NCBI RefSeq assembly: GCF_009931435.1
Contig: NZ_CP043414.1
Source: Escherichia coli
GTDB lineage: Bacteria > Pseudomonadota > Gammaproteobacteria > Enterobacterales > Enterobacteriaceae
Strand: one strand, 5' to 3'
Length of the DNA: 64,000 nt
Of the stretch, positions 6,001 through 9,000 are shown in pieces (positions within the stretch are counted from its first letter, which is position 1; every line of letters starts with the position of its first letter). Made by a program: the position numbers.

Positions 6001-9000
6001 TTAAATAGTTTTAATTTAGCAAATTTGATAAACAACTCACTCGCCATTACCCCGATTGATCTTCGCATAGTCAAACGGCGTAATCGCTCTCTCCCGATTG
6101 GCATCCAGAAAATCTGCCCACCACTGCAGCATCAGCTTGCGCTCATCCAGATGCTCCGCTTTATGGATATACGCTGCCTGCACTGAGTTACGTCCATGTG
6201 GCTCATCTGACGTTCAGCCGCTTTATCTCGTGCTGTTCTGGTCTCAATACTTCCATGCCGTTGCAATTACCTCTTAAACCATTCCTTACCATTTTCATGT
6301 CTTCGATAAGAAATCTTCATCATGCATGATCGATTTTGTCGATCGATTCGATCGAATTTTCTCTTTTTACCCTGCCTTTTGCATGGTTTTAAAATAGGCA
6401 AAATTACTTGTCATTCGTGGAAAATGATGGCGGAGATAACTGAGCTTAAAAAGTTTCTCTTGTCTCCGTCACTTGCCATACCAGCCAGGAAAAGAAGATG
6501 TCAGCACAAGAAAAAACAGTACAGATTGATTCTTTTGATGCGAAATTTTTAGATATAAATACATTAAGCAAGCTTATCTATGAACGTAAGAGTTTTGTGA
6601 TAGAAAATGTTTCCGATGTTAGTGAAACGGTAAAAAGAGTGGAGCATGAAATAGAGAAAAGGAAATTAAGTTGTCGTGTATATACTGAGTACAGGAGCAC
6701 AGCTTTAGCTGGTTCTTTATGGTCACCAACCGTAATTCTGGGAGTGGCGAGTGCAGTAGCAATAGGTGTTCATAATTTATCTACATGGAACCCCGATTAT
6801 GAAATCGGTAAGAACTATATTAAACGGAGATTATCGGTAAAATATAAAAAGGCAGAAGTATTGTGATCGGTTACTCCAGTGCCCCTGCCTGTTCGTATTC
6901 TGGTGAGGTTGTATACACATAATTTCAGGCTGGCGTTCACGTCCTCACTGAGGAAATATATTTATTTTGTGTAGAGTAAAAGTCTGGCTTCCGTAGTGTG
7001 GAGGGGGGAGGCTGCCTTTAGTCCGGTTTTTAAATATTAAAAATATATATTAAAGTGATGATACAATAACGGAGATAATTGAAATGAAAAAGGTTTTTGC
7101 TGTTTCAGTGGTGGGCGCAGCCTGTGTATTTGCAGCAAATGCAGGTGCTGAGGACGGTAAAAGCGGTTTTTATCTGACCGGTAAAGCCGGTGCCTCTGTG
7201 GTGTCACTTTCAGACCAGCGTTTCCTGTCAGGAGATGAAGAAGAAACGTCAAAGTATAAAGGTGGGGATGACCATGACACGGTATTCAGTGGCGGTATCG
7301 CAGCCGGTTATGATTTTTATCCGCAGTTCAGTATTCCGGTTCGTACAGAACTGGAGTTTTACGCACGTGGAAAAGCTGATTCGAAGTATAACATAGATAA
7401 AGGTAAAGGCAGCTGGTCAGATGGTTACTGGCGTGATGACCTTAAGAATGAGGTATCACTCAACACTCTGATGCTGAATGCATACTATGACTTCCGGAAT
7501 GACAGTGCATTCACACCATGGGTATCAGCAGGGATTGGTTACGCCAGGATTCATCAGAAAACAACCGGTATCAGCACCTGGGATTACGGGTACGGATACA
7601 GTGGTCGTGAATCGTTGTCACGTTCAGGCTCTGCTGACAACTTCGCATGGAGCCTTGGCGCGGGTGTTCGCTATGACGTAACCCCGGATATCGCTCTGGA
7701 CCTCAGCTATCGCTATCTTGATGCAGGTGACAGCAGTGTGAGTTACAAGGACGAGTGGGGCGATAAATATAAATCAGAAGTTGATGTTAAAAGTCATGAC
7801 ATCATGCTTGGTGTGACTTATAACTTCTGACGACACTGCTTCTGAACGATAATTGCGCATATTTCTGCAATTAAGATAATTACGTATTTCTGTAATTAAA
7901 AAGGAACACCCTGCAGTAATATTATACTGCAGGGTTGTCTGTTATCTGTTTCACAGATAACTTCTGATTTTTATTATCCTGTTCTCTTCATAATAATGTT
8001 GTCGATATACTCCGATGAATATAAGAAAACTGTTTTGTCCGGGCAACACTCCCCGGATTATATTGTTTTTATTCTTTTTTGTTGTTTCTGTCATAACCAC
8101 AATTGCATGCGGATACACTGAGAAGAATGCCACCGGGAATGTGTTGCTGCTGTTCCTTCTTCTGCTCCTTGCACACAGAAATACCCTCACATCCATTACA
8201 GCGCTGTTATTTCTGTTCTGTTGTGCACTGTATGCGCCTGCCGGTATGACGTACGGAAAAATCAACAACAGTTTTATTGTCGCGTTGTTGCAGACCACGG
8301 CGGATGAGGCTGCGGAGTTTACCGGGATGATTCCTGTTTATCATTTTCTGGTCAGTGCCGCGATTCTGGTGTTCATGGTTATTTTCTGGCGGACACACCA
8401 CCGTGGTCAACGTAACGCGATGGCTCTGTTGTTATTCGTATTATGCTCTGTAAACAGCTGGCCGTTACGGATGGTTAAAGGAACAGTTGTGGGGACAACT
8501 GACACATTGCGTGAAATGCAGCGTTATGAACAACTGAGTCGGCACGGTGCTGACAGCTGGAAAATCCTGCCGGGAGCACCATTATATGACACGATTGTTA
8601 TTGTTACTGGTGAGAGTGTCCGCAGGGATTATATGTCGGTATATGGTTATCCCGAGCCAACCACACCATGGCTGAATACGGCTCCCGGTTTATTTATTGA
8701 CGGTTATACATCGGCAGCAGCCAGTACCGTACCTTCCCTGAGCCGGACACTGATTTATGACTATGAGCAGAACCCTGACTCCGGCAACAACGTGGTGGCG
8801 CTGGCAGCAAAAGCAGGATACAGCACATGGTGGATATCCAATCAGGGAAAGCTGGGGGAGCATGATACACGCATCTCTGTTATTGCTTCTGATGCGGAGC
8901 ATACCGTTTTCCTCAAGAAAGGCAGCTTTGCTTCCCGTAAAACGGATGACATGTTGTTGTTACAGGAAACAGAACGTGCGCTGGCAGATACATCCACTCC

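Follow-up and report, generated by a model that had tools for sequence, protein, structure and literature searches.

We analyzed a 64,000-nucleotide stretch of an Escherichia coli contig (NZ_CP043414.1, assembly GCF_009931435.1), referred to here as the window. It contains a cluster of three GATC sites, the target of Dam methylation, directly upstream of a predicted sigma-70 promoter. The conservation of the cluster among related loci makes it a well-supported cis-regulatory site. Cluster and promoter evidently form a conserved cassette that moves with genes of the Hra family of outer-membrane adhesins from island to island. The cluster may well be the operator of a Dam-methylation-dependent epigenetic switch at the Hra-family promoter, operated by HdfR or by an unspecified LysR-type regulator. 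We favor this reading tentatively and stop just short of calling it probable.

The cluster lies at 6321-6360, where the window reads CATGCATGATCGATTTTGTCGATCGATTCGATCGAATTTT. It is placed between an integrase pseudogene and an open reading frame (ORF) of 122 amino acids, here called orf122 (Table 1). The first-pass annotation had described three GATC sites within 26 bp, upstream of the small ORF and beside the integrase remnant, and this description was correct. GATC2 and GATC3 lie in two copies of TCGATCGA (6339-6346 and 6348-6355). GATC1 sits in TGATCGAT and not in a full TCGATCGA. The nearest other GATC sites are at 6058 and 6865, and the window contains 289 GATC sites in total. The expected number of triple-GATC clusters per 64 kb is 0.44 in a first-order Markov simulation and 1.3 when the same number of sites is placed randomly. 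Chance is exceeded by how well divergent loci have kept the cluster and its position, and by its match to the std element of Salmonella. A second GATC triple of 21 bp (GATCTGCGCGATCACCGGATC) is present at 19513-19533, inside long ORFs of both strands in the resistance region.

The phylogenetic footprint compares three deep upstream lineages (loci L004, L003, and L006). Their coding DNA is ~70% identical. The 34 bp 5' of the cluster are identical at 9-25 of 34 positions. The 26-bp GATC core is identical at 25 of 26 positions, or at 24-25 of 26 with a 9-bp insert. The 12 bp from the core to the -35 element are identical at 4-6 of 12 positions, and the 30-bp promoter block at 29-30 of 30. The cluster and the promoter are thus two islands of constraint in a fast-evolving leader, because they are far better conserved than the segments between and around them. 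A single core position (1/26) differs between Tia-type and Hek-type upstream alleles, and the core of the most diverged allele has 1-2 substitutions plus the 9-bp insert. GATTCGATCG is unchanged in 10 of 10 aligned loci. The only recurrent variation of the -10 element among alleles is TAAAAT versus TAGAAT. Transcription would start near 6402.

Natural alleles differ in their GATC sites. GATC2 and GATC3 are kept in every complete allele. L008 and L017 have GATT in place of GATC1, and in L017 the start codon of the adhesin gene reads ATA. In L006, where the cluster is at 3046-3077, the 9-bp insert creates a fourth GATC in the same 9-bp register, with spacings of 13, 9, and 9 bp. L010 has a 45-bp deletion between GATTCGAT repeats, and GATC1 and GATC2 are gone.

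If the cluster had no present function, it would be a TCGA microsatellite in decay, or it would be left over from the truncated integrase or its attachment region and carried along by linkage. The sequence is made of TCGA units, it adjoins an integrase pseudogene in many loci, and a triple GATC is not rare by chance. However, the block is retained without the integrase remnant in pap, subAB, atoS, and IS1 contexts. The integrase coding homology stops at 6192 (tblastn), and the core is much better conserved than the flanks and the coding sequence. This pattern of conservation largely refutes a lack of function, which we consider very improbable. The first-pass annotation had raised a former recombination or restriction target as another option. 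This was not borne out, as the block accompanies the adhesin gene through many unrelated islands and no detectable integrase coding homology extends past 6192. No tie was found between the cluster and the neighboring type I restriction system.

The palindrome could also be an intrinsic terminator or insulating hairpin that halts upstream transcription before the adhesin promoter. A scan flagged TCGATCGATTCGATCGA followed by ATTTTCTCTT as terminator-like, and the arms grow to 10 bp in L006 by paired changes (ACCGATCGAT ... ATCGATCGGT). But the stem is weak (-6.3 kcal/mol as DNA; z = -1.7), and 8 of 200 shuffles fold equally well. TCGATCGA is self-complementary, so any two copies make an inverted repeat. 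The T-run is missing in L003-type and L006 alleles. The upstream neighbors vary among loci and are mostly on the opposite strand, with no consistent plus-strand gene. A stable G+C-rich hairpin, a conserved T-run, and a consistent same-strand upstream gene, which would mark an intrinsic terminator, are absent here, and we give this explanation hardly any weight.

The first-pass annotation had proposed a genome-wide count of the motif. Among 5426 complete E. coli genomes, 1575 (~29%) carry the 37-bp cluster, at 1881 places, every one of them intergenic. Positions 6200-6500 of the window were matched by BLAST in ~1680 of the 5426 genomes. In annotated examples, the block is directly upstream of a Hra-family outer-membrane adhesin gene, sometimes named tia in RefSeq. 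The GATC sites are at -117, -104, and -95 relative to the ATG, or one base less, in all Hra-family loci compared. The contexts of the block are unrelated and number at least six. They are the islands at selC, at pheV/pap, and with subAB, and the positions next to atoS, next to an H-NS-like gene, and behind IS1. Examples from the pap context have it behind papG/papX in sequence type 131 (ST131) and O177:H21. Elsewhere it lies behind an integrase remnant, or beside subAB, atoS, or the H-NS-like gene. In L016 (1469-1501), an IS1 end lies 31 bp upstream of GATC1 and the module is intact. When one genome per species was scanned for the invariant core of the promoter, just three contigs came up, and each was identical to an E. 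coli allele. At this stringency, no representative genome of another species had the cassette.

The Hra family has been defined previously (PMC5539235). Its members are beta-barrel outer-membrane proteins of ~245 amino acids like Tia, Hek, Hra1, Hra2, and Hes, and the window adhesin is of this kind. The adhesins of the compared loci fall into three groups (Hek/Hra1-like, Tia-like, and a third type) with a mutual identity of only 60-69%. The window adhesin is 84-93% identical to Hek-type proteins and 60-64% identical to Tia-type and third-type proteins. It is 63-64% identical to RefSeq-annotated Tia.

Across many unrelated contexts (L002-L005, L007, L008, L010, L015, L017, and L018), the Hra-family gene has the same phosphoethanolamine transferase gene behind it, as in the window at 7084-9517. 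The transferase gene is frameshifted in some of those loci. The two genes look like a traveling two-gene cassette. Behind the third-type adhesin gene, a WYL/WCX regulator takes the place of the transferase. Because this regulator, seen in L009, is not of the LysR type, it is no obvious cognate factor.

The first gene after the window promoter is orf122. It has no family in Pfam, NCBIfam, or PADLOC. The segment 6431-6469 aligns with the true adhesin 5' end (7070-7109) at 30 of 40 positions, and also with the starts of tia, hek, and hra genes elsewhere. The ribosome-binding site (RBS) and first codons of the adhesin gene are duplicated, with the orf122 segment between the copies, and ST131 has the same arrangement. 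A rearrangement evidently put orf122 between the promoter and the adhesin gene in the window. The promoter scan found no plus-strand promoter-like site in 6396-7895. Between orf122 and the adhesin gene there is just a weak 5-bp hairpin (6942-6954). Because there is no such promoter and only this hairpin between them, the conserved promoter would drive orf122 and read through into the adhesin gene. The adhesin gene is probably the real target of the promoter. The first-pass annotation had placed the cluster upstream of the small ORF, but the element belongs to the Hra/Hek/Tia adhesin genes and not to that ORF as such.

The upstream activating sequence (UAS) of std in Salmonella has a trio of GATC sites within a 25-bp interval, at -242, -229, and -220, with spacings of 13 and 9 bp (PMC6735912). 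The LysR-type protein HdfR binds it only when it is unmethylated (PMC6735912). HdfR requires GATC-2 and GATC-3, not GATC-1, and shields the sites from Dam (PMC6735912). OFF cells are methylated at the UAS (PMC6735912). The std switch of HdfR and Dam is bistable, with ON and OFF lineages (Jakomin 2008; Garcia-Pastor 2019, PMC6735912). We took the std sequence from a Salmonella genome (L027) by following the contig from the idi neighborhood to stdA. PapC homologs, used as another route, led to pap/mrp-like operons and not to std.

The std region reads ACGATCATAATCATCGATCGTATCGATCTATTTTT, with GATC sites at 17567, 17580, and 17589 of L027. Its core TCGATCGTATCGATCTATTTTT is identical to TCGATCGATTCGATCGAATTTT of the window (6339-6360) at 18 of 22 positions, and at 10 of 14 outside the GATC letters. 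Among the fetched loci, TCGATCGNNTCGATC is present only at Hra-family sites and in std. A metagenome scan retrieved 102 matches to the shared 18-base core. Nearly all of them were chance or coding matches in environmental contigs, and the scan revealed no wider regulon. A third GATC 13 bp upstream of the core was present only in std and in one repeat contig. One 1.4-kb metagenomic contig (L031, 300-400) contains TCGATCGAGTCGGTCGATCGAGTCGATCAAATTTT with the 13/9 GATC spacing, within TCGAGTCGA-type repeats; it has no convincing genes. The natural E. coli variants that lost GATC1 and kept GATC2-GATC3 agree with the std mutagenesis. E. coli itself has an hdfR gene.

The cluster could instead be a conventional operator. 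A regulator would recognize the TCGATCGA repeats, the GATC sites would be incidental and fully methylated, and expression would be tuned without heritable states. Conservation and position attest a cis-regulatory site, not a role of methylation, and most E. coli GATC sites are fully methylated (>99% in ST131 EC958; PMC4659465). However, this explanation would need a coincidence, with spacing, orientation, and core all as in a site where methylation blocks binding. The insert of L006 also adds its GATC in the same 9-bp register. We consider a conventional operator rather unlikely.

In the methylation-dependent switch that we favor, a LysR-type regulator would bind the palindrome of GATC2 and GATC3, when unmethylated, together with the ATC-N9-GAT box next to it. 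The likeliest regulator would be HdfR, by analogy with the std UAS. With its binding centered ~55-66 bp upstream of the predicted start, it would turn the promoter on and keep Dam away from the sites. Dam methylation after replication would exclude the regulator, and the promoter would stay off. Each state would be inherited, giving ON and OFF subpopulations. In the window, the switch would drive orf122 and, by read-through, the adhesin gene. It is possible, and to us still doubtful, that the GATC triple is a std-type HdfR/Dam switch in a promoter cassette that is portable and serves the entire Hra family (Tia, Hek, Hra1, Hes, and Hra2-like). The Dam-sensitive switch suggested in the first-pass annotation is favored by comparative evidence, namely the footprint at a conserved promoter and the GATC architecture of std and OxyR/Dam sites, and this evidence is indirect. 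SeqA was the only protein partner that it named; HdfR and OxyR are the candidates here.

Several points weigh against a std-type switch. Every mechanistic step is drawn by analogy. Three GATC sites in 26 bp, taken alone, are not improbable. The single best match of the std core in the window is 6339-6360, a score that random 64-kb sequences reach with a probability of ~0.003, but this value is optimistic, as the 22-bp segment was picked after viewing the alignment. The flanks are unrelated, and the likeness spans ~26 bp and consists partly of the GATC letters themselves. The std site is at -220 to -242, whereas the window cluster abuts the -35 element, with GATC3 ending 12 bp before it. The std switch needs the co-activators StdE and StdF, which are encoded by its own operon, and no such genes are present in the E. 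coli cassette or nearby. The K-12 hdfR-maoP intergenic region has no similar motif, and thus provides no independent HdfR motif to score. The box from GATC1 to GATC2, with the bases between, is conserved in the E. coli alleles although GATC-1 is dispensable in std. That conservation suits an OxyR half-site at least equally.

OxyR could operate the same type of switch, as at agn43, gtr, and opvAB. It would bind unmethylated ATCGATTTTGTCGAT and, beginning at GATC3 and reaching up to the -35 element, a second half-site. Dam methylation would exclude it. ATCGATTTTGTCGAT matches the OxyR dimer consensus ATAGxTxxxAxCTAT at 8 of 10 positions. It shares the gATCG...CGATc form and the 13-bp GATC spacing with agn43 (ATCGTTTATATCGAT) and with sites A and C of P22 gtr (ATCGGTAACAACGAT and ATCGCTTGTATCGAT). 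Three allele families are perfect for ATCGxTxxxAxCGAT; the alleles of L003, L015, L018, and L006 have the required A at position 10 of the ATC-N9-GAT box. The bases between GATC1 and GATC2 are conserved. GATC1 and GATC3 are 22 bp apart, which is the start-to-start distance of neighboring OxyR half-sites. The site centers, near -66 and -44, are like those of OxyR-activated promoters and of the OxyR-binding site OBS-D of opvAB at -43. The second half-site of L006 (ATCGGTTGTAACCAT) matches at 8 of 10 positions and lies at +31 bp, near the 32-bp spacing of gtr and opvAB.

Other features do not fit OxyR. The second half-site that an OxyR tetramer would need, 22 or 32 bp away, is poor in window-type alleles, with 4 of 10 matches in the window (ATCGAATTTTCTCTT at +22) and 5 of 10 in L003 and L007. 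The strictest conservation is in the GATC2-GATC3 palindrome, which would straddle the half-site boundary. The 13/9 triple is absent from known OxyR/Dam sites and present in std, and GATC1 is lost in some intact alleles. We judge a switch operated by OxyR to be rather unlikely. HdfR and OxyR are both LysR-type proteins of E. coli, and the data favor neither decisively.

The Hra-family proteins Tia, Hek, Hra1, and Hes are studied as adhesins, invasins, and autoaggregation factors. They belong to enterotoxigenic E. coli (ETEC), neonatal-meningitis and uropathogenic E. coli, enteroaggregative E. coli (EAEC), and Shiga toxin-producing E. coli (STEC) that lack the locus of enterocyte effacement. In two functional studies, these proteins were expressed from foreign inducible promoters. 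The searched literature, whose coverage is incomplete so that an earlier description is possible, does not link tia, hek, hra1, or hes to Dam, OxyR, HdfR, or phase variation. It contains no account of the native control of Hra-family genes and no binding or per-read methylation results for the three sites, and none of its papers prints the motif. The passage of a 2026 review that covers pap mentions OxyR only with agn43 and gtr.

If the switch exists, these antigens would be displayed by part of the population. This would bear on vaccine ideas, adhesion assays, and immune evasion. The locus would join a short list of Dam/LysR-type epigenetic switches. It would be a second, differently placed example of the 13/9 GATC arrangement and would help to define HdfR or OxyR recognition. 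The natural alleles (four GATC sites, lost GATC1, 45-bp deletion) would set different switching behavior. If the regulator is HdfR, expression of the adhesin-invasins would be confined to a heritable subpopulation in ~29% of complete E. coli genomes, with ST131, ETEC, EAEC, and STEC lineages among them. The element would then be the first HdfR/Dam switch outside Salmonella std and the first on a non-fimbrial adhesin, and it would be promoter-proximal instead of far upstream.

The window carries a selC island, with the tRNA-Sec gene at 38973-39067 and the island integrase at 37489-38673. A resistance and transposon region (9600-36000) is inserted in this island, with the phosphoethanolamine transferase gene on one side and the integrase of the island on the other. 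Upstream of the cluster, the AAA ATPase has PADLOC matches to candidate defense families (PDC-M55A, NsnB, AriA-like, and GajA-like N-terminus). Pfam, NCBIfam, and PADLOC gave no significant match for its 313-amino-acid partner. The two come immediately after the genes for type I restriction and look like a candidate two-gene defense pair.

Table 1. Features of the window, in order of position (a point marks features without a strand)
Feature	Position	Strand	Description or basis
Type I restriction system	upstream of 3296		
AAA ATPase	3296-4918		540 amino acids
Partner of AAA ATPase	4873-5814		313 amino acids; overlaps the ATPase gene
Integrase remnant (pseudogene)	6037-6221	minus	
GATC core, GATCGATTTTGTCGATCGATTCGATC	6328-6353	.	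three Dam sites; GATC starts at 6328, 6341, and 6350; spacing 13 + 9 bp; span 26 bp
ATC-N9-GAT box, ATCGATTTTGTCGAT	6329-6343	.	GATC1 and GATC2 at its ends; LysR-type/OxyR-like half-site by consensus match
Perfect 17-bp palindrome, TCGATCGA-T-TCGATCGA	6339-6355	.	carries GATC2 and GATC3; candidate primary protein-binding determinant
Predicted sigma-70 promoter	6366-6395	plus	-35 TTTACC (6366-6371), 18-bp spacer, -10 TAAAAT (6390-6395); consensus scan, independent of conservation
Decayed RBS and first codons of a Hra-family gene	6431-6469	plus	CTT (6445-6447) at the ATG position; alignment to the adhesin 5' end and other loci
orf122	6498-6866	plus	122-amino-acid hypothetical protein (RefSeq "hypothetical protein"); one C-terminal hydrophobic segment; first gene after the promoter
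Hra-family (Hek/Hra1/Hes-like) outer-membrane beta-barrel adhesin gene	7084-7830	plus	Pfam OMP_b-brl, 2e-20
Phosphoethanolamine transferase	8015-9517		
blaTEM	11640-12500	minus	
Tn3-family transposase (first of two)	13369-16407		
merA	17116-18810		
IS21 transposase	22846-24369		
Tn3-family transposase (second of two)	30535-33501		
catA	34146-34805	minus	

The pap switch resembles the proposed one in its Dam-dependent ON/OFF control of an adhesin, and a Hra-family gene is directly downstream of the pap operon in several islands. It uses two GATC boxes ~102 bp apart within Lrp sites, together with PapI and PapB. A pap-type Lrp/Dam switch was rejected for the window. The cluster has no partner GATC ~100 bp away (nearest 6058 and 6865), and the cassette has no papI- or papB-like genes.

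The agn43 (flu) element, an OxyR/Dam phase-variation switch of E. coli, likewise has three GATC sites close together. A pair of them with 13-bp spacing brackets an ATCGxTxxxAxCGAT box. An autoaggregating E. coli surface adhesin is controlled in both cases. However, the GATC spacing of agn43 is 19 and then 13 bp. Its site is downstream of the transcription start, and OxyR represses there. The window site is upstream of the -35 element, a position typical of activation.

The gtr (phage P22, Salmonella) and opvAB elements have 13-bp GATC pairs in OxyR half-sites that are upstream of the -35 element and abut it. OxyR binding and methylation are mutually exclusive in those systems. They differ in having four GATC sites and three or four half-sites 32 bp apart, whose alternative occupancy sets ON and OFF. 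The window allele has three GATC sites and one good half-site. Only L006, with four GATC sites and an 8/10 half-site at +31, approaches their layout.

The std element differs in its target, which is fimbriae and not a monomeric beta-barrel adhesin, and in its host, Salmonella and not E. coli. It shares with the window the three GATC sites in ~26 bp, at spacings of 13 and 9 bp. In both, the 9-bp pair is the one nearer the promoter, and the orientation to the gene is the same. It shares the GATC-2/GATC-3 core and the T-tract that follows (18 of 22 positions). The GATC farthest from the promoter, which std can do without, has been lost naturally from some E. coli alleles. In both cases the DNA is horizontally acquired, and the element precedes a gene for a surface adhesin.

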